From Nanobdellota archaeon (GTDB taxonomy: Archaea; Nanobdellota; Nanobdellia; Pacearchaeales; GW2011-AR1), in the NCBI GenBank assembly GCA_043810695.1, contig JBDRNV010000005.1, positions 10,590 to 74,589 on the forward strand: a stretch of 64,000 nucleotides of DNA. The letters run 5' to 3'. Shown here one piece after another: positions 3 through 62,476 of this stretch (the first letter of the stretch is position 1; each line of letters begins with the position of its first letter). The translations under genes and the position numbers were made by a program. A model generated the notes under the pieces. That model had not been told where the DNA came from. It worked only from the letters and a program-made list of their open reading frames with translations, and searched no databases.

Positions 3-614
3 TTGATATCAGGAGGTGCAACAACTGTTCTTGATTTAAGCGTATATAATTCAGTAGGAGCATTTAATATTCGCGCTCTTACAATAAGTCTTATATCAAG
101 AAAAATTTTCAATCAAAGAATGGAAGCACGTAAAAAAGAAGAGGTTAAGTCTGTTTCAAAAGGACTTGAGCTTTTATCAAATGTTGAAAAAAAAGAATAC
201 CCTCTTGTATGGATTTTTATTGATGAAGCACACGAATTTCTTCCGTTAAACGAAAAAACAGTTGCAACAGATGCACTTGTCCAGCTTTTAAGAGAAGGTA
301 GGCAGCCTGGAATATCCCTTGTGCTTGCAACACAACAACCAGGAAGGATTCATAGGGATGTAATGACGCAGGCAGATATAGTAATATCTCACAGAGTAAC
401 TTCAAAATCAGATTTAGAGGCATTAAATTATATAATGCAGTCCTATGTCCTTGAAAGTGTAAAGAAACAAATGGATGATCTTCCAACATTAAAGGGTTCT
501 GCAATAGTATTAGATGATAATTCAGAAAGAATTTATCCTGCAAGAATGCGCCCACGATTCACTTGGCATGGTGGAGAAGCGCCTACAGCAATAAAGGCAG
601 AGAAGAAGTTATAA
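3..614 (+). CDS. HerA/FtsK-like P-loop ATPase, C-terminal fragment (5' end outside window)
   Basis: Walker B-like IFIDEAHEF and ATQQP motif typical of the HerA/DUF87 family. The ORF runs from the window edge. Confidence 0.5.
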   Translation: MISGGATTVLDLSVYNSVGAFNIRALTISLISRKIFNQRMEARKKEEVKSVSKGLELLSNVEKKEYPLVWIFIDEAHEFLPLNEKTVATDALVQLLREGRQPGISLVLATQQPGRIHRDVMTQADIVISHRVTSKSDLEALNYIMQSYVLESVKKQMDDLPTLKGSAIVLDDNSERIYPARMRPRFTWHGGEAPTAIKAEKKL

Positions 615-54925: not shown

Positions 54926-56959
54926 ATGGCTGAAGAAGCATTGATAACTGGCAAGTCAAAAAACGATGAATTAATGATTGAAGCAAAAAATTTCTTTGAC
55001 TTCAATAAGAAAGAAATAGGTGAATCAATAAGAAAGGGCAGAAACGTAATATATATTGATTTTATAAAACTGACAGAATTCTCAAACAAACTAGCAGAAG
55101 AGATTCTTATAAATCCAGAAGAAACACTTGGAATTATTGAGCTTGCAATTGAAGAAATGGGGCTTGTTAGTAAGGTTCGGATAAGATTTGTAAATCTTCC
55201 AAAAAGTCAGGAGATGGCTGTAAGAAATATTCGATCAAAAAATCTTAATGAAATGGTTGTCATTGAAGGAATTGTAAGGCAGGCTAGTGATGTTCGTCCG
55301 CAGGTTATAAATGCAAAATTCGAATGTCCTTCATGCGGCACTGTGATTTCTGTTCTGCAAATGGAAAAAAAATTTTTAGAACCTTCAAGATGTTCTTGCG
55401 GCAGAAGAGGTGGTTTCAGGCTTATCAGCAAGGAAATGGTAGATACTCAAAGAGTTGTTGTTGAAGAAGCGCCTGAGTCTCTAACAGGAGGAGAACAGCC
55501 AAAAAGAATAAACACTTTTCTTAAGGAAGATCTTGTTGAACCAAAAATGGAAGAAAAAACAACCCCAGGCAGCAGAGTCAAAATAATAGGAATACTAAAA
55601 GAAGTTCCTGTTCCACTTAATTCAGGCGGACTTTCAACAAGATTTGAACTTGCTCTTGAAGTTAATAATATAATTCCTATGGAAGAAACTTTTGAAGAGC
55701 TTGATATAAATGAAGAAGATGAAAAACAGATTCTTGAACTTGCACAAGACCCAAAAGTATTTGAAAAACTTGCCGGAAGTATCATTCCAAGCGTTTGGGG
55801 CTATGAAGAAATAAAAAAATCTCTTGTTCTGCAATTATTCGGAGGAGTTAAAAAAACTCATATAGACGGTCAAAAAAGCAGGGGAGATTTGCATATTCTT
55901 CTTGTTGGAGACCCAGGTGTTGCAAAATCAGCAACTCTTGGTTTCATGGCAGGAATTTCGCCAAAAGGAAGATATGTTGTAGGAAAATCTGCAAGCGGGG
56001 CAGGACTTACAGCCACTGTTGTAAGAGATGAATATCTTCGTGGTTGGAGTCTTGAAGCAGGTGCAATGGTTCTTGCAAATAAAGGACTTGTATGTATTGA
56101 TGAACTTGAAAAAATGGATCCCAATGACAGAAGCGCAATGCATGAAGCAATGGAACAGCAAACGATAACAATAAGCAAGGCAAATGTTCAGGCAACATTA
56201 CGTGCAGAGACATCTGTACTCGCAGCTGCAAATCCAAAATTTGGCAGGTTTGATCCATATCAGCCAATTGCACAGCAAATTGATTTGCCTCCCACATTAA
56301 TAAATCGGTTTGATGTAATCTTTCCTTTAAGAGATTTACCTGATAGAAAAAAGGACGAACTTATTGCAACACATGTTCTAAATGCACATCAAAATGAAGG
56401 AGAAGGTATGGTAATTCCAAGAGAACTCTTTAGAAAATATATTGCTTATGCAAAACAAAGAATAAAACCTTTTCTAAAAGATGAAGCTGTTGAAGAAATA
56501 AAAAAATTCTATGTTGAATTAAGAAACATGCCTGTTTCATCAGAAGGAGCATTGAGGCCAATTCCAATTTCTGCAAGACAGTTGCAAGCTTTAATAAGAA
56601 TGTCAGAAGCTTCTGCAAAAATGAGATTAAGCGAAACAGTTGATGCTGAAGACTCAAGAAGGGCAATAGAAATCATGAAATATTATCTAACCCAGGTTGG
56701 ATGGGATTATGAGTCAAAAACATTTGATATAGACAAAGGAACAGGAGGAATGCCCGCCTCGCAAAGAAATAAAGTCTTTCTCGTAAGAGATGTTATAACC
56801 AATCTTGAAAATAAACTCGGAAAAATGATTCCAATAGAAGAAATAGAAAAAGAACTTGAAGGCAAACTTACAACAGATGAAATAGATGAAGCAATAACAA
56901 AACTTGACATAAGCGGTGTAATATTTAAACCAAGAAAAGGATATGTTGCAAGGACTTAA
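54926..56959 (+). CDS. mcm: MCM replicative helicase
   Basis: C4 zinc finger (CPSCG...CSCG), Walker A GDPGVAKS, Walker B CIDELEKM, and an arginine-finger region. 677 aa with no intein. Confidence 0.9.
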   Translation: MAEEALITGKSKNDELMIEAKNFFDFNKKEIGESIRKGRNVIYIDFIKLTEFSNKLAEEILINPEETLGIIELAIEEMGLVSKVRIRFVNLPKSQEMAVRNIRSKNLNEMVVIEGIVRQASDVRPQVINAKFECPSCGTVISVLQMEKKFLEPSRCSCGRRGGFRLISKEMVDTQRVVVEEAPESLTGGEQPKRINTFLKEDLVEPKMEEKTTPGSRVKIIGILKEVPVPLNSGGLSTRFELALEVNNIIPMEETFEELDINEEDEKQILELAQDPKVFEKLAGSIIPSVWGYEEIKKSLVLQLFGGVKKTHIDGQKSRGDLHILLVGDPGVAKSATLGFMAGISPKGRYVVGKSASGAGLTATVVRDEYLRGWSLEAGAMVLANKGLVCIDELEKMDPNDRSAMHEAMEQQTITISKANVQATLRAETSVLAAANPKFGRFDPYQPIAQQIDLPPTLINRFDVIFPLRDLPDRKKDELIATHVLNAHQNEGEGMVIPRELFRKYIAYAKQRIKPFLKDEAVEEIKKFYVELRNMPVSSEGALRPIPISARQLQALIRMSEASAKMRLSETVDAEDSRRAIEIMKYYLTQVGWDYESKTFDIDKGTGGMPASQRNKVFLVRDVITNLENKLGKMIPIEEIEKELEGKLTTDEIDEAITKLDISGVIFKPRKGYVART

Positions 56960-57284
56960 AATGTGGGAAAAATTAGGAAACGTTAATATAAAAGATAAAG
57001 AAAAATATTTGAATTTATTTAGAGATTTGATAAATAGAATTCAAGCTGGAAATTATAAATTTAATGATATTGAAGGTAAAGATTATTATATTATTAACGA
57101 AGAAAACAGGAAGTCTAGCAAATTTGTTCATATAGTTCCAAAAGAGTTATTAACCCTCTTTAATGATATGAGAAAAGATGCACCTAACGAATTTTTAGGT
57201 TTTACTATATTAATAAATAATGTAAGAGTAAGCTGCTTTGGGATTCCGTGTTCAGAATTAAGCAAAGCGATAATAAACAAATAA
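56943..57284 (+). CDS. hypothetical protein (start possibly at internal Met 56961)
   Basis: 113-aa ORF overlapping the mcm stop. Confidence 0.3.
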   Translation: MLQGLKMWEKLGNVNIKDKEKYLNLFRDLINRIQAGNYKFNDIEGKDYYIINEENRKSSKFVHIVPKELLTLFNDMRKDAPNEFLGFTILINNVRVSCFGIPCSELSKAIINK

Positions 57285-57287
57285 AAA

Positions 57288-57929
57288 ATGGCTGAAGAAC
57301 AATTCAAAAGAAATATAGCATATAAACTAAGAATAGGCGATATTTTAATAGGAAAGCCAGTAGTAGATGGAGAAAGATTTTCTTTTCTTGAATTAGGAGA
57401 TAAAAAAATAATAAGAGTAAATATTATAGGAAATATTGTTGACAAGTATGACACAGGACAAGAAGAAAGAAGCGACGGAAGAAAATATGTTTTTCTTACA
57501 TTAGATGACGGCTCAGGGCAGATAAGATTAAAAGCATTTGGTGATGATTTTGATAAATTTCGGAATTTTGTTCAGGGGCAGACAGTTGTTGTAATAGGAA
57601 TGCTAAGACACTGGAACAATGAAACATATCTCTCTCCTGAAATAATAAAAGAAATGGATTCAAAATATCTTCTTGTAAGAAAATTAGAAACAGAAAAAGA
57701 TAAAGTCGTAAATTCTGGAAATATTGCTAAAGAGCAGGTAATAGCAATTAAGGACAGAATTCTTGAACTAATAAAAAATTCAGAAGAAAACAGCGGAATA
57801 GAGATTGATAAAATAACTGAAAATTTCCCGACCATCTCTTCAACATTAATAAACCGGGAAGTTCAAAAGCTTCTTGAAGAAGGAATTGCTTTTGAACCTC
57901 GCCCTGGAAAAATCAGGTATTTGGGATGA
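57288..57929 (+). CDS. OB-fold nucleic-acid-binding protein with C-terminal winged helix (RPA32-like, tentative)
   Basis: A beta-rich OB-like core (IRVNIIGNIV...YVFLTLDDGSGQIRLKAF) and a C-terminal wH-like EVQKLLEEGIAFEPRPGKIRY. Lies next to mcm. Confidence 0.4.
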   Translation: MAEEQFKRNIAYKLRIGDILIGKPVVDGERFSFLELGDKKIIRVNIIGNIVDKYDTGQEERSDGRKYVFLTLDDGSGQIRLKAFGDDFDKFRNFVQGQTVVVIGMLRHWNNETYLSPEIIKEMDSKYLLVRKLETEKDKVVNSGNIAKEQVIAIKDRILELIKNSEENSGIEIDKITENFPTISSTLINREVQKLLEEGIAFEPRPGKIRYLG

Positions 57930-57931
57930 TT
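57900..57931. repeat. left copy of 32-nt direct repeat (CGCCCTGGAAAAATCAGGTATTTGGGATGATT) = 3' end of OB-fold gene
   Basis: Matches 58394-58425 with 3 mismatches. Brackets the DUF4258/DUF2283 cassette. Confidence 0.6.
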
Positions 57932-57935
57932 AAAT

Positions 57936-58169
57936 ATGAAAATAAAATATTCAAAACACTGGATTAGGAAACAAAAAGATAAGAAAAAAGATATTACAAA
58001 GGACATCATTGAATACTGCATAAAAAATTCTAATCAGTTAAAGGACAAGTATTGGACAGATGTTTTTAATGCCATTTCAAAAATACCAGTCTCTGGAAGA
58101 ATACTCAAAGTTGTATATAAAAAAGAGAACCAAAAAGTATTTATAATAACAGCATATTGGTTAGATTAA
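57936..58169 (+). CDS. DUF4258-like small protein (putative toxin component)
   Basis: 77 aa, with KIPVSGRILKVVYKKENQKVFIITAYW resembling the DUF4258 C-terminus. Lies directly upstream of a DUF2283-like gene. Confidence 0.45.
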   Translation: MKIKYSKHWIRKQKDKKKDITKDIIEYCIKNSNQLKDKYWTDVFNAISKIPVSGRILKVVYKKENQKVFIITAYWLD

Positions 58170-58170
58170 G

Positions 58171-58380
58171 ATGAAAAAGATAACTTACGACAAAGAAGCT
58201 GATGTTTTGAATATAGATTTGGAAAACAAAGAATATTGGAAAAGTGTAGAGTTACCTAATGGAATGATTGTTGATATTTCAAAGGATGGAAGTATAACTT
58301 CTATTGAAATTCTATGGGCAAGCAAATTCTTTTCTGGAGATGCCAGAAGAGTTATTGAAACAGCAGAATCTATTTCTTGA
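58171..58380 (+). CDS. DUF2283-like small protein (putative antitoxin component)
   Basis: YDKEADVLNIDLENKEYWKSVELPNGMIVDISKDGSITSIEILWAS matches the DUF2283 pattern (YDxExDxLYI...GxxxGIEIL). Confidence 0.55.
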   Translation: MKKITYDKEADVLNIDLENKEYWKSVELPNGMIVDISKDGSITSIEILWASKFFSGDARRVIETAESIS

Positions 58381-58393
58381 CAAGTATGAGTCA

Positions 58394-58425
58394 CGTCCTG
58401 GAAAAATTAGGTATTTAGGATGATT
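58394..58425. repeat. right copy of 32-nt direct repeat (CGTCCTGGAAAAATTAGGTATTTAGGATGATT)
   Basis: See the left copy. The right copy would also encode ...RPGKIRYLG-stop. Confidence 0.6.
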
Positions 58426-58435
58426 TTATCTTCTT

Positions 58436-59479
58436 TTACCTATAAATTTCTCTTACAACTTTCTTCCTTAATTCAAATGAATCAGCCCATTTTGCATAAG
58501 CATTCCAGCCCTGAAAGATTTCAAGTATCTTTTCTTTATTTAAATCCGCGTTCCTATATTTTCTGATTTCCAAAAACATATTCCTTATGTTTCTTTTTCT
58601 TAAAAGCCTGAAATAATAAAAATTTCTGAAACCGACAAAATCTATTCCTCTTGATAAAGAAATAATTTTAGACTTTTCTTTATGAAATTCAATTTTTAAA
58701 TTTTTAATTAAAAAATCCTCTATCACCCCCCCCCAGCTTAGTAGTTTTTCTCTTGACGGATTTATAAGAACAAAGTCATCAACGTATCTTATATAATATT
58801 TTGCCCGCAATTTATGTTTAACAAATTTATCAAGTTCATTTAAGTAAACATTAGCAAAAAATTGGGAGGTTAAATTTCCAAGAGGCATTCCTTTTCCCTT
58901 AGGGTTGTCTAAAACATTATTTTCCAAAATTCTTTCAATAAGCCAAATTACTTTCTCGTCTCTTATCTTCCTTCTTATTATGCTCAGCAAAATTTTATGG
59001 TCAACTTCCTGGAAATAATGTTTGATGTCTGCTTTAAAACAATATCCTTTTACTTGATTATTATTAAACCATCCTTTTGTTTTTCCATTTTTTGAAACCT
59101 TTCTCATAAAATTATAAAATCTTTTTATAGCAAACAAGTTTCCCTTTCCTTTACGATTAGCGCAAGAGTCGTAAATAAAGGTTTTATCAAATATTGGTTC
59201 AATAACTCTAACTAAAGCATGATGAACAATTCTATCCCTGAAATCAGATTTAGAAATTTTTCTGGATTTTGGGTCTCGTAGAATAAATGTTTTTAATGGA
59301 AGAGGTTCATAAGTTTGGAATTTCAGTTCATTATGTAATGCTCTTAAATTAGTTACTAATTTTTCCTCAAACTCAATAACATCATCTTTCTGTGTTTTTC
59401 CTTTTCTTGCTTTTCTCCATGCAAGAACCAGATTCTTTATTGAATAAATCTCAGGATAAAGATTTTTATGGGTTCGCAT
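58436..59479 (-). CDS. DGR-type reverse transcriptase
   Basis: RT domains 1-7, including RKISKSDFRDRIVHHAL, GMPLGNLTSQFFANVYLNELD (LGxxxSQ, as in Bordetella bRT IGNLTSQ) and RYVDDFVLI. 347 aa, the size of DGR RTs and smaller than group II maturases. Confidence 0.85.
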   Translation of the reverse strand: MRTHKNLYPEIYSIKNLVLAWRKARKGKTQKDDVIEFEEKLVTNLRALHNELKFQTYEPLPLKTFILRDPKSRKISKSDFRDRIVHHALVRVIEPIFDKTFIYDSCANRKGKGNLFAIKRFYNFMRKVSKNGKTKGWFNNNQVKGYCFKADIKHYFQEVDHKILLSIIRRKIRDEKVIWLIERILENNVLDNPKGKGMPLGNLTSQFFANVYLNELDKFVKHKLRAKYYIRYVDDFVLINPSREKLLSWGGVIEDFLIKNLKIEFHKEKSKIISLSRGIDFVGFRNFYYFRLLRKRNIRNMFLEIRKYRNADLNKEKILEIFQGWNAYAKWADSFELRKKVVREIYR

Positions 59480-59511
59480 ATTAGCATGAAAAACCTAGCC
59501 ATTAGTTGAGC

Positions 59512-59596
59512 CATTCTACCATTATCGTTGGAATTCGCCAAGTTATCATTGTTGGAGTTCAAATTCAAGTTCCTGTTCAAGTACAACCTGGAAAGT
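59512..59596 (-). repeat. DGR template repeat (TR), sense on minus strand
   Basis: 85 nt. Compared with VR1 and VR2, all 17+17 mismatches fall on plus-strand T (an A in the minus-strand template). Lies between the target gene and the RT. Confidence 0.75.
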
Positions 59597-59818
59597 TTTT
59601 CTAGCCCATTAATTAAAAGTAAATCACCACCTTTTCAATTTTCAGTAAACTTACTAGTTGTTAAAGTTGAATTTTATGACTTCCATATTAATGGAAGTGC
59701 TATTAATGGGCGTGTGGCCCAACCATGATACTTGATTAACAAGTACTGGCTAGGAATTTTATAAAGAAGAATTGTTTTATAAATTTAATTTCCTTTAAAT
59801 TGACTACGCTTGGACAAT

Positions 59819-60676
59819 TTATTTTCCACTAAGAACTTTTTCTGCTTTTTTGTATCTTCTATCAACTTCTGATATTTGTTTATCTCTTATTTCTTGAAGA
59901 TTTTTTAAATAATCATCCAAAATTTTCTGCGAAGTGGCTTCGCCACTTACAACAACCACCCTACCACCATCGCCGGAATCCGCCAAGCCACCATCGTTGG
60001 AGATCAAACTCAAGCCCCTGCCCAAGTACAACCTGGAAAGTCCTGAATCTCTTGTATAAAGAGTTCTGTTTCCATCTCCTAATTTTTCAGGCAAACCATA
60101 TTTTCCTGTTTCTGAAAATGATTTTTGATTATTTTTTCCATTAAGAATAGGTGCATAAATTAATTCTGCTTCATCTGTTAACTTAAATACCAATCCCTTA
60201 GGCGAATTTGAATCATTGACTATTTCAAGCTCATTTAATGAAATAAGTATTGGTGTTTCTCCTGCTTTTTTTCCTCTTGCTTTTACCTGTTCTGCTAAAT
60301 TTTTAGCGAGATATTCATTTGGATTTCCCTCTGTTCTTAAAACTAATCCAGTATCTTCATATGTTCCTCTTAAATTAAAGGCATTTGTTTTTAAAACTCT
60401 TTCAAGGTCAGCTTGGTTTGCTGTTCTTAATCCTTCTTGTTTAAGAATCTGGTTAGCAAGAACAACTACAAAGGGGTTGCTTTCTTTTACAATACCATCT
60501 GTATATGAAAGAACATTAAGGGCATTTGCGTTTTTGTAATCAATTTTAACTTTTCCTTGGTATTCTGCTAAGAAAGCTTTTCCAAAATCTCCTTCTAAAA
60601 ATCCTGCTTGAGGTGTGTTTTCTGGAATTGCAATTAATGGTTTTCCTTTGAATGCTGGAAGTCTTGTCTTTTCCAT
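59819..60676 (-). CDS. DGR variable (target) protein 1
   Basis: 285 aa. C-terminal region ...NRTLYTRDSGLSRLYLGRGLSLISNDGGLADSGDGGRVVVVSGEATSQK is encoded by VR1, followed by a 34-aa tail. Paralog of target 2. Confidence 0.65.
   Translation of the reverse strand: MEKTRLPAFKGKPLIAIPENTPQAGFLEGDFGKAFLAEYQGKVKIDYKNANALNVLSYTDGIVKESNPFVVVLANQILKQEGLRTANQADLERVLKTNAFNLRGTYEDTGLVLRTEGNPNEYLAKNLAEQVKARGKKAGETPILISLNELEIVNDSNSPKGLVFKLTDEAELIYAPILNGKNNQKSFSETGKYGLPEKLGDGNRTLYTRDSGLSRLYLGRGLSLISNDGGLADSGDGGRVVVVSGEATSQKILDDYLKNLQEIRDKQISEVDRRYKKAEKVLSGK
59957..60041 (-). repeat. DGR variable repeat VR1
   Basis: 68/85 identical to the TR. The 17 differences all fall at TR adenines. Followed on the 3' side (coding sense) by a hairpin at 59932-59948. 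Confidence 0.75.
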
Positions 60677-60678
60677 TT

Positions 60679-61392
60679 TTATTGTTTTCTTTTTACTATT
60701 TTTTGTGAAGTGGCTTCGCCACCAACAACAACCACCCTACCATAATCGATGGAATACGCCAAGCTACCACCGTCGGAGTACAAATCCAAGCCCCTGCCCA
60801 AGTACAACCCGGAAAGTCCTGAATCTCTTGTATAAAGAGTTCTATTTCCTTTTTTATCAAATATAGGCATTCCACGTTCATCTTGTCTTACAAATTTTTG
60901 TTGATTATTTTTATTATTCAATTCAGGAGCTTCAAAATAATCAAAGGTTTTTCCTCTCTTAAAATTTAAACCATAAAAAGAATTACCATCCTCAACTAAT
61001 TCTAAGCCATTCATAACAACAGGTTCATTAAATTTTCTTTTTTTAATAAGTTTAGCCAATGTTTCTGCTAAATAATCATTTCTTTCATAAGTATCTTCGT
61101 TACTTCTTAATACAAGAGAAGGAACATCTTCATATGTTCCATTTAAAAAATTATTATCTAATTGGATTATTTGGTCTAATTCTGGTAAAGTAGCTGTCCT
61201 TATTCCTACCTGATTAAGCAAAAGAACCTTAAAAAGATTAGAACCTTTTATAGAAATATCTAATGAATTTTTTGCCCTTTCATTATTAAACTTTTTAATA
61301 GCATCTTCATATATTTTCTGCTCATTTTCTGATAAAAATCCTGCTATTAAGTAAGGCACATTCTTGGGTATAAATCTTATTGTCTTTTCCAT
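60679..61392 (-). CDS. DGR variable (target) protein 2
   Basis: 237 aa. The C-terminus ...LYLGRGLDLYSDGGSLAYSIDYGRVVVVGGEATSQKIVKRKQ is encoded by VR2. No signal peptide seen. Confidence 0.65.
   Translation of the reverse strand: MEKTIRFIPKNVPYLIAGFLSENEQKIYEDAIKKFNNERAKNSLDISIKGSNLFKVLLLNQVGIRTATLPELDQIIQLDNNFLNGTYEDVPSLVLRSNEDTYERNDYLAETLAKLIKKRKFNEPVVMNGLELVEDGNSFYGLNFKRGKTFDYFEAPELNNKNNQQKFVRQDERGMPIFDKKGNRTLYTRDSGLSGLYLGRGLDLYSDGGSLAYSIDYGRVVVVGGEATSQKIVKRKQ
60733..60817 (-). repeat. DGR variable repeat VR2
   Basis: 68/85 identical to the TR. The 17 differences all fall at TR adenines, at a partly different set of positions from VR1. Hairpin at 60707-60723. Confidence 0.75.
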
Positions 61393-61471
61393 GCATTTTC
61401 AAGAAATAGATGATATTTAAATGTTTCTATTATGTTACCCCTTAATAATTAATAATGATTATCTCTTTAAA

Positions 61472-61783
61472 TCAGCCACGCTTGGATGATTTCTTCTTCC
61501 CAAACTTCTTATTAAAATAATAAGCAAGCCATATTAAAATAACTAGTCCTATAAGAGATATCAAAAATCTAATCCAGTTTAAAGTATAAGGCCAGTAAGC
61601 ACCAGAGCCATAAATCAAAGTACCTATTCCTCCACCCATCAAACCAACACCAACTGTTTCAAGTCCAAAGAAAAAAGCTCCCAAAGCAACTATAGCAATT
61701 CCAACAGGAAGCGCTAGAAAGAAAACTTTTTTGCTTCTTTCTTTCATCAGATTATCAAACTCTTGGCTACAATAATAATACAA
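61472..61783 (-). CDS. small membrane protein
   Basis: Two to three hydrophobic helices and a basic C-terminus. Confidence 0.35.
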   Translation of the reverse strand: MYYYCSQEFDNLMKERSKKVFFLALPVGIAIVALGAFFFGLETVGVGLMGGGIGTLIYGSGAYWPYTLNWIRFLISLIGLVILIWLAYYFNKKFGKKKSSKRG

Positions 61784-62065
61784 ATCACAATAGCCATTTT
61801 CAGAAGTTTCTACTGGTTTTATACCTGCATAATAACTCCACCTGCCTCCTTCTGCAATACAAGTAGCATTATCATTTATAGGAATATCCTATCCAACATT
61901 ACCGCAAAAATCTTCATAATCTGGTTTTGGAAAAAGAGTATTTATTCCGTAAAAAGTCACAAAAATAGTAAGTATTATTATCGCAATAGCAAGAAGAACA
62001 TTTTTTAGATTCATATTATAAAAAAATCTAAAACATTTATAAACCTTGTCAAGTAACTTTTTATC

Positions 62066-62476
62066 ATGGAAAACTATGAAAAACTTCTTGAAGAAGCATA
62101 TAAAAAAATAAAGAAAAATGATACTTGCAGTGATAGATTTGAAATTCCTAAAATAGAAGGACATTTTGAAGGAAAAAAGACAATACTTACAAATTTTTAT
62201 CAGATAGCTTCATATTTAAGAAGAAATCAAGAGCATTTTCAGAAATTCATGCTTAAAGAACTTGCAGCATCAGGACAAAAAGAAGGAGATAGATTAATAT
62301 TAAATATAAAGGTTCAAAGCGAAAAAATAAATCAAAAAGTAGAAGAATATGCAAATGAATTTGTAATTTGCAGAGAATGCAAAAAGCCTGATACAGAACT
62401 CATAAAAGAAGGAAGAATAACTTTTGTTCACTGCTTGGCTTGTGGAGCAAAACATCCTGTTGGTAGTAAGGTTTAA
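62066..62476 (+). CDS. eif2b: translation initiation factor 2 beta subunit (aIF2beta)
   Basis: Core helix region and a C-terminal C4 zinc ribbon (CRECKKPDT...CLACGA). 136 aa. Confidence 0.8.
   Translation: MENYEKLLEEAYKKIKKNDTCSDRFEIPKIEGHFEGKKTILTNFYQIASYLRRNQEHFQKFMLKELAASGQKEGDRLILNIKVQSEKINQKVEEYANEFVICRECKKPDTELIKEGRITFVHCLACGAKHPVGSKV

Follow-up and report, generated by a model that had tools for sequence, protein, structure and literature searches.

How does a diversity-generating retroelement (DGR) distinguish its recipient, the variable repeat (VR), from its donor, the template repeat (TR)? The question is raised by a locus in a 64,000-nucleotide stretch of DNA from a Nanobdellota archaeon (contig JBDRNV010000005.1, positions 10,590 to 74,589), referred to here as the window. 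The window contains a complete, textbook DGR. All of its features (targets, RT-16 RNA, TR and reverse transcriptase (RT)) lie on the minus strand, in the order target gene 2, target gene 1, a 214-nt non-coding gap, TR, 31 nt and the RT open reading frame (ORF) (Table 1). DGR-type RTs have the signature [LIV]GxxxSQ, and the LGNLTSQ of this RT is of that type. Each VR was aligned with the TR over 86 nt, and all 34 differences over both VRs (34/34) fall at TR adenines. A short palindrome stands just 3' of each VR. That these palindromes are cis-acting target-site hairpins of a nanoarchaeal-type DGR, marking gene copies for hypermutation, is well supported: the element and its geometry, its conservation and covariation, its absence from TRs and its association with RT-linked, adenine-mutated VRs are all observed here.

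An earlier examination of these letters by themselves (the sequence-only reading) had described a GC-rich hairpin after both VRs, with a stem of about 7 bp and a 3-nt loop, that is missing from the TR. We searched the 64 kb for the pattern AAGTGGCNNNGCCACT (AAGTGGC-NNN-GCCACT), allowing at most one mismatch, and compared the result with 100 dinucleotide shuffles. The only matches were at 59932-59947/8 (exact) and 60708-60723 (one mismatch), and none of the 100 shuffles contained any match, so that within the window the palindrome is confined to the two VR ends and is not, as had been considered, common elsewhere. Folded as single-stranded DNA, the VR1 flank forms a 7-bp stem with a 3-nt loop (-6.3 kcal/mol, z-score -2.3 to -3.1) and the VR2 flank a stem of 5-6 bp (-5.2 to -5.8 kcal/mol, z-score -1.9 to -2.7), whereas the equivalent TR end reaches only -0.3 to -0.7 kcal/mol, poorer than shuffles. 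Search and folding thus bear out a GC-rich hairpin 3' of both VRs that is absent from the TR. The proposed stem length is correct for VR1 (59932-59948), while VR2 has five Watson-Crick pairs (60710-60722) and an additional G·T; the loop, which had been read as TTC in coding sense, is in fact GAA.

Counting all perfect GC-rich hairpins in the window (stem of at least 5 bp with at least 4 GC, loop of 3-6 nt) gave 12 against 2.0 expected, with 3 of the 12 at the two VR sites. Taken alone, the heptamer GCGAAGC shows no significant enrichment in the window (3 occurrences against 1.2 expected, with at least 3 in 16 of 100 shuffles), and the enrichment therefore holds for the full palindrome only. 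Hairpins of 5-7 bp are short enough that they could be imagined to have arisen by chance in a GC-richer patch. This explanation, to which we give practically no probability, is refuted by the lack of any match in 100 shuffles against two sites at the same offset from the VR end, and by the same geometry at 72 sites in other genomes, described below. A second palindrome, GCGAAG-TGG-CTTCGC (6 bp, 59929-59943), overlaps the VR1 hairpin as an alternative fold, and its trailing TTCGC is common in relatives.

Immediately upstream of the hairpins, the ends of the repeats themselves differ. The VRs read GGTAGGGTGGTTGTTGT… and the TR GGTAGAATGGCTCAACT…, a difference between the initiation of mutagenic homing (IMH) segment and its TR counterpart, IMH*. 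In the window the core is TAGGGT in the VRs and TAGAAT in the TR. The sequence-only reading had proposed checking the TR for an IMH* variant, and one is present there (GAATGG… against GGGTGG… in the VRs) as well as in 22 other cognate TRs. The IMH had been expected to be GC-rich; an IMH-like segment is present, but it is G/T-rich (GGTAGGGTGGTTGTTGT) and not purely GC. In every VR of the related VR/TR sets examined, the AA of the TR (AGA ATG) is replaced by GG (AGG/CGG GTG), which indicates that this difference between IMH and IMH* is fixed and does not come from mutagenesis.

RT genes are present in 34 related loci, in which the TR always lies 20-55 nt upstream of the RT start. These TRs were located by RT-anchored local alignment, most of them having escaped a caller with a limit of 3 non-adenine mismatches over 84 nt. 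Each of the 23 distinct TR ends has the sequence GGYMGAAT-RRCYCAR-N(1-12)-GGCTAGG, after which comes an A/T-rich linker, and the palindrome is found in none of the 23 (the window and the 22 other cognate TRs). Folded as DNA, 30 RT-linked VR flanks average -6.4 kcal/mol and 22 cognate TR tails -1.5 kcal/mol (p = 6e-9).

More than 300 relatives of the target protein are found in DPANN metagenomes. To avoid circularity through ascertainment by the hairpin, 116 related loci were fetched with peptide patterns from the N-terminal domain only, and the family ORFs within them were then located with a hidden Markov model. Of 103 distinct homologous sites, 72 have the hairpin in the equivalent place; the distance from the first base of the Gly-Arg-Val codons to the start of the stem is exactly 19 nt in 52 cases. 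Among these 72 hairpins there are 25 different 5-bp stems, with compensatory changes, and 5 bp is the core of the family. The loop is GAA in 53, AAA in 6, GGA in 4 and GCA in 3, with others in the remainder; 61 of the 72 conform to GNA and 57 are GAA or GGA, and a 4-nt loop occurs just once. The loop is nearly always closed by C·G (CG 62, UG 6, UA 3, no GC).

Covariation was tested on a plain MAFFT alignment of 88 distinct flanks, hairpin-less homologues included, over the five core pairs. In these, 82% of cells are paired, 93 cells have changed on both sides and 20 additional pair types appear. The covariation score of 0.51 compares with 0.19 in shuffles, and 0 of 500 shuffles reach 0.51. Controls in which the register was slid give pairing in only 25-45%, and RNAalifold independently predicts four of the five core pairs. 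The sequence-only reading had asked for conservation in related DGR targets, and this is what we observe, with covariation, in sites ascertained independently of the hairpin.

A further enrichment lies just 3' of the hairpin (59910-59931 and 60688-60709 on the minus strand of the window). Among 70 loop-anchored flanks, CGC is present in 59% compared with a background of 1%, and after it an A-run/T-run such as AAAATTTT in 44-51% compared with 7-9%, whether the hairpin is in coding sequence or after a stop codon. Possibly the target-site signal reaches past the stem-loop, or the run also serves, in non-coding cases, as an oligo-T terminator.

Both hairpins of the window lie inside the target ORFs and not between genes; they encode (S/G)-G-E-A-T, and 37 (VR1) and 11 (VR2) codons follow. 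The two copies have identical cores within paralogous ORFs, and a C-terminal GRVVVVS-x-E-x-T motif is conserved across the family, from which it could be argued that the palindrome is a by-product of the peptide motif S-G-E-A-T and a recent duplication of the target gene, with no function as nucleic acid. The homologues speak against this. Their C-termini read GRVVVV followed by S-G-E-A-T, S-A-E-G-T, S-A-E-G-A or S-T-A-E-G-G-S, each of which back-translates to a palindrome around the GAA codon, and over the series SGEAT, SAEGT, SAEGA, STAEGGS and SDEVG the changes keep base pairing and not residue chemistry. The codons used are rare ones: in the hairpins 81% of Gly codons are GGC and 76% of Ala codons are GCC, compared with 12% and 6% in the N-terminal domains of the same genes, and GC content at third codon positions is 0.55 compared with 0.17. 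Furthermore, in a subfamily of targets that ends in GRVVFLK-stop the hairpin is retained past the stop codon (loci L111, L028, L029, L020 and L102; Table 1). The corresponding residues of AvpA are predicted to be disordered, according to Handa et al. (PMC5006420). Covariation, the stem and loop statistics, the synonymous codons and the non-coding occurrences together exclude a peptide-only explanation, which is already largely refuted and in our estimation very improbable. The hairpin is a nucleic-acid element, selected at the nucleotide level, and not a peptide motif.

Which nucleic acid is involved is a separate matter. The hairpin is transcribed in sense orientation and could work as RNA in the target transcript, apart from retrohoming, by affecting mRNA stability, by imposing a translational pause before the C-terminal tail, or as a terminator or attenuator between the tandem targets. 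The covariation fits DNA and RNA alike, as it does sense and antisense strands, and the CGC and A-run/T-run that follow in non-coding and often in coding cases are a possible archaeal oligo-T termination signal. However, in the window 11 to 37 more codons of the same ORF follow, and the downstream sequences TCGCAGAAAATTTTGG and TCACAAAAAATAG lack the run of at least five Ts expected of an intrinsic terminator. The hairpin also goes together with adenine-mutated VRs linked to an RT and has been lost from paralogues that are not diversified, its C(GNA)G loop and closing pair match the consensus of DNA mini-hairpins, and the homologous element of Bordetella phage BPP-1 acts as DNA, on the evidence of structure-specific nuclease mapping and orientation independence (Guo et al. 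2011, PMC3240598). We therefore regard a role as transcript RNA as unlikely. A generic terminator was considered as well and rejected, because within the 64 kb the palindrome occurs at the two VR ends only, lies inside ORFs and has no T-run behind it.

Mini-hairpins with a GNA triloop, GCGNAGC, are extraordinarily stable, and their stability depends on the closing pair (PMC13037366, PMC3201870). Both VR sense strands contain GCGAAGC, an instance of d(GCGNAGC), and a C·G pair around GNA occurs in most family members, the non-coding ones included. Because this closing pair and loop form the stable mini-hairpin consensus, they fit a hairpin of sense-strand DNA, and it is probably as DNA, with the sense strand extruded, that the element acts, and not as RNA. 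The tetraloop mini-hairpin d(GCGNNAGC) resembles the GRNA loops of phage. These mini-hairpins are a biophysical motif and not a genetic system, and in the window the motif is known from its sequence.

The distribution of the hairpin follows that of the RT. It is present in 34 of 37 RT-linked sites and in 16 of 30 sites whose flank, of 2.5 kb or more, contains no RT (Fisher p = 5e-4, for sites that are related to one another). The single-cell genome AAA011-D5 has three VRs that mismatch the TR at adenines only, all with the hairpin, and a fourth paralogue, with non-adenine mismatches, that lacks it. Five further sites (L096 2779, L100 1668, L103 1107, L024 6729 and L010 6720) end just after GRI(I/V)VV, with neither a hairpin nor an RT in the locus, and the first four of these keep a TR-like AGAATA and not AGGGT. 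All five are probably undiversified or fossil paralogues.

The closest experimentally studied counterpart is the BPP-1 DGR, the only one for which a role of such a hairpin in retrohoming has been shown by experiment (PMC3240598). In that phage, Guo et al. (2011, PLoS Genet 7:e1002414, PMC3240598) showed that the DNA immediately 3' of the VR contains a GC-rich inverted repeat that folds into a hairpin or cruciform. Pairing matters and stem sequence does not, the GRNA loop matters in sequence and in size, and IMH plus hairpin is enough to target a foreign gene (PMC3240598). The element in the window likewise is a GC-rich inverted repeat 3' of the VR, past the TR/VR homology and absent from the TR, with a stem that is free in sequence but paired, a conserved loop that is purine-rich on the sense strand (G…A), and some flexibility in its distance from the VR. 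The two differ in that the element here is translated whereas that of BPP-1 is intergenic, and in the IMH, which is G/T-rich here and (GC)14 + 21 bp in BPP-1. No Avd-like match was found near the window DGR in a Pfam search of nine ORFs at 56943-62476. Group IIC introns offer another parallel, as retroelements that recognise a GC-rich DNA stem-loop (of terminators) by structure and not by sequence; here, however, there is no intron, insertion event or U-tract, the loop sequence is conserved and the DNA is coding.

Within the archaea the likeness is closer. Paul et al. 2015 (Nat Commun 6:6585, PMC4372165) describe Nanoarchaeota DGRs from DUSEL4 in which the IMH has GGGT, the IMH* has GAAT and the target gene itself contains a hairpin with a GRA triloop, and Handa et al. 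2016 (PMC5006420) place a hairpin within the 46-residue post-VR extension of AvpA. With these systems the window shares GGGT/GAAT, a GRA loop (GAA), an intragenic hairpin with a C-terminal extension, the order target(s)-TR-RT, several targets per element and an AT-rich DPANN host. The comparison with archaeal DGRs that the sequence-only reading had called for thus finds the same architecture in Nanoarchaeota. Since the window matches them point for point, and the feature type is published, this is a known kind of element. The DUSEL4 motif is TGGGGT/TGGAAT and ours TAGGGT/TAGAAT, one base different upstream of the same core (CGGGT or AGGGT in relatives), and the post-stop hairpins of the GRVVFLK-stop subfamily are an exception to the position within the ORF seen in DUSEL4. 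The metagenome-assembled genome of the window is not among the genomes described in the DUSEL4 papers. In the passages of those papers used for comparison, the covariation and codon-bias evidence, the post-stop variant and the link to RT-16 appear to be absent, and the comparative evidence given here appears to go beyond the original descriptions. The window target family has no detectable sequence similarity to AvpA or other solved structures; neither target protein has a Pfam match, and a sequence search of the PDB for a relative of AvpA or C-type lectins returned only noise (E >= 0.03).

These comparisons suggest how direction might be set. The RT would copy the TR RNA, making adenine-specific errors, and the complementary DNA (cDNA) would replace only those repeats that have the 3' IMH variant (…GGGTGGTTGTTGT) and, 2-3 nt further on, a short GC-rich stem whose C·G closing pair encloses a GNA triloop (GCGAAGC on the sense strand, which is the classic stable DNA mini-hairpin). 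The TR, with GAATGGCTCA…GGCTAGG and no stem, would never be overwritten, which would give the process its direction. Selected as a structure, the stem would drift in sequence through compensatory changes and, being translated, would force palindromic peptides such as SGEAT, SAEGT, SAEGA and TAEGG. By analogy with BPP-1, the hairpin is likely to promote cDNA integration. We consider it highly probable that a repeat is marked to receive mutagenised cDNA by its IMH and hairpin together, and that the hairpin-less IMH* protects the TR and so sets the direction of information flow. The sequence-only reading had made the same proposal for retrohoming recipients, and the conservation of the hairpin, its absence from the TR and the analogous systems (Paul et al. 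2015) support it.

Several points weigh against this assignment. The function in archaeal DGRs is attributed by analogy, and the BPP-1 optimum is a GC-rich stem of 7-10 bp with a 4-nt 5'-GRNA loop on the sense strand, a shorter stem or altered loop size having abolished function there (PMC3240598); here the stems are 5-7 bp (VR1 7 bp with 4 GC, VR2 5 bp) and the loop is GAA, 3 nt. Because the sites are related by phylogeny, the shuffle and Fisher statistics overstate their independence. A comparison of G·T with A·C at single non-Watson-Crick stem positions gave 4 against 4 and says nothing on which strand folds. Sixteen hairpin-bearing sites have no RT within ~6 kb, and these may be remote or fossil targets. 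Conversely, the VRs of L060, L063 and L084 are RT-linked and adenine-mutated and have no significant hairpin at the usual position, from which it follows that the hairpin is not absolutely required or is replaced there. Candidate substitutes in these three (GCGACA…24 nt…TGTCGC and GTCGT-GGTAG-GCGAC) were rejected, as they fold no better than shuffles (z-score -0.7 to +0.7).

The gap upstream of the TR contains a match to RT-16 with 106.9 bits against a gathering score of 50, over model positions 1-158 of 158 (59754..59596), and its 3' limit coincides exactly with the 5' boundary of the TR. Of 17 related loci with an RT, 16 have RT-16 in this position. Apart from RT-10, the RT motifs were left without an assigned role by Weinberg et al. 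2017, who speculated that some serve DGRs. The appearance of RT-16 here is that of a structured 5' leader to the DGR template RNA. In the window this structured RNA lies 5' of the TR, unlike RT-10/Sp in BPP-1. The TR is bracketed by GGCTAG-like boxes, AATGGGCTAG on its 5' side (59598-59606, within RT-16) and AATGGCTAGG on its 3' side (59494-59500). In an alignment of 23 TR tails the tail box, GAATRRCYCAR-N-GGCTAGG, stands 10-30 nt ahead of the RT ATG. It is kept even where the cognate VR stem differs, which suggests a function of its own, for example in template definition or priming.

Tentatively, these elements might form parts of one scheme, though we consider it rather less than an even prospect. 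In it, a composite signal of IMH GGGT, a sense-strand C(GNA)G mini-hairpin, CGC and an A/T tract would be read as extruded single-stranded DNA by a complex of RT and RT-16; RT-16, 5' of the TR, would correspond, in archaea, to the priming RNA of BPP-1, and the GGCTAG boxes would define the template. If this were true, GNA triloops in archaea and GRNA tetraloops in phage would be two mini-hairpin classes serving one recognition principle, and the Gly/Ala swaps of the target proteins would be an uncommon instance of covariation in DNA structure showing up in protein sequence.

The family is a compact natural dataset, with ~70 hairpins, 25 stems, matched TRs, hairpin-less paralogues, and coding and non-coding versions. 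It could be used for defining the minimal archaeal target signal, and from there portable DGR targets for directed evolution. It also provides a simple rule for annotating VRs as active in DPANN genomes, which looks for GGGT with a C(GNA)G stem 8-11 nt downstream of it and for RT-16 and a TR in the vicinity.

Table 1. Features of the DGR locus in the window, followed by hairpin variants at related loci
Feature	Position or locus	Strand	Details
Reverse transcriptase ORF	58436..59479	-	347 aa; Pfam RVT_1, E 8.6e-18; LGNLTSQ and YVDD box
TR 3' tail, IMH* equivalent	59480..59516	-	GAATGGCTCAACTAATGGCTAGG and T-rich linker to RT ATG; no hairpin
GGCTAGG box, conserved, in TR 3' tail	59500-59494	-	
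Template repeat (TR)	59511..59596	-	29 adenines; AAY-rich codons in VR frame (LSRLYLNRNLNLNSNNDNLANSNDNGRM)
RT-16 RNA (Rfam RF03019)	59596..59754	-	Full-length match abutting TR 5' end
Target gene 1	59819..60676	-	285 aa; 37-aa C-terminal tail after VR1 hairpin
VR1 target-site hairpin	59932..59948	-	AAGTGGC 59948-59942, loop GAA 59941-59939, GCCACTT 59938-59932; in target ORF 1; S-G-E-A-T
VR1 IMH-like segment	59949..59965	-	GGTAGGGTGGTTGTTGT; encodes G-R-V-V-V-V; fixed GG 59960-59959 vs AA in TR
VR1	59956..60041	-	86 nt aligned to TR; 17 mismatches, all at TR adenines
Target gene 2	60679..61392	-	237 aa; paralogue of target 1; ends 11 codons past hairpin
VR2 target-site hairpin	60709..60723	-	GTGGC-GAA-GCCAC 60722-60710, 5 Watson-Crick pairs and G·T 60723/60709; in target ORF 2; G-G-E-A-T
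VR2 IMH-like segment	60724..60741	-	GGTAGGGTGGTTGTTGTT; fixed GG 60736-60735
VR2	60732..60817	-	86 nt aligned to TR; 17 mismatches, all at TR adenines
Post-stop hairpin	L111		TAG-TGGC-GAA-GCCAC
Post-stop hairpin	L028		AGTTGC-GAA-GCAACT
Post-stop hairpin	L029		GTGCC-AAA-GGCAC
Post-stop hairpin	L020		TGCC-GAA-GGCA
Post-stop hairpin	L102		GTTGC-TGTA-GCAAC
Hairpin-less RT-linked VRs	L060 6166, L063 6714, L084 2161		C-terminus GDSAVNPEKYVAEI

The part of target 1 that follows the hairpin (59819-59931, minus strand) is a charged tail of 37 residues that looks helical (SQKILDDYLKNLQEIRDKQISEVDRRYKKAEKVLSGK), and target 2 has no such tail. Many homologues have tails comparable to that of target 1, which in this respect is like the disordered 46-residue extension of AvpA. 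The flanking genes, which include eIF2-beta, and the best protein match of the target ("Nanoarchaeota archaeon") assign the locus to a DPANN archaeon that is AT-rich (~30% GC). A DUF4258/DUF2283 gene pair, toxin-antitoxin-like, lies at 57936-58380 on the plus strand and converges on the RT gene at its 3' end.

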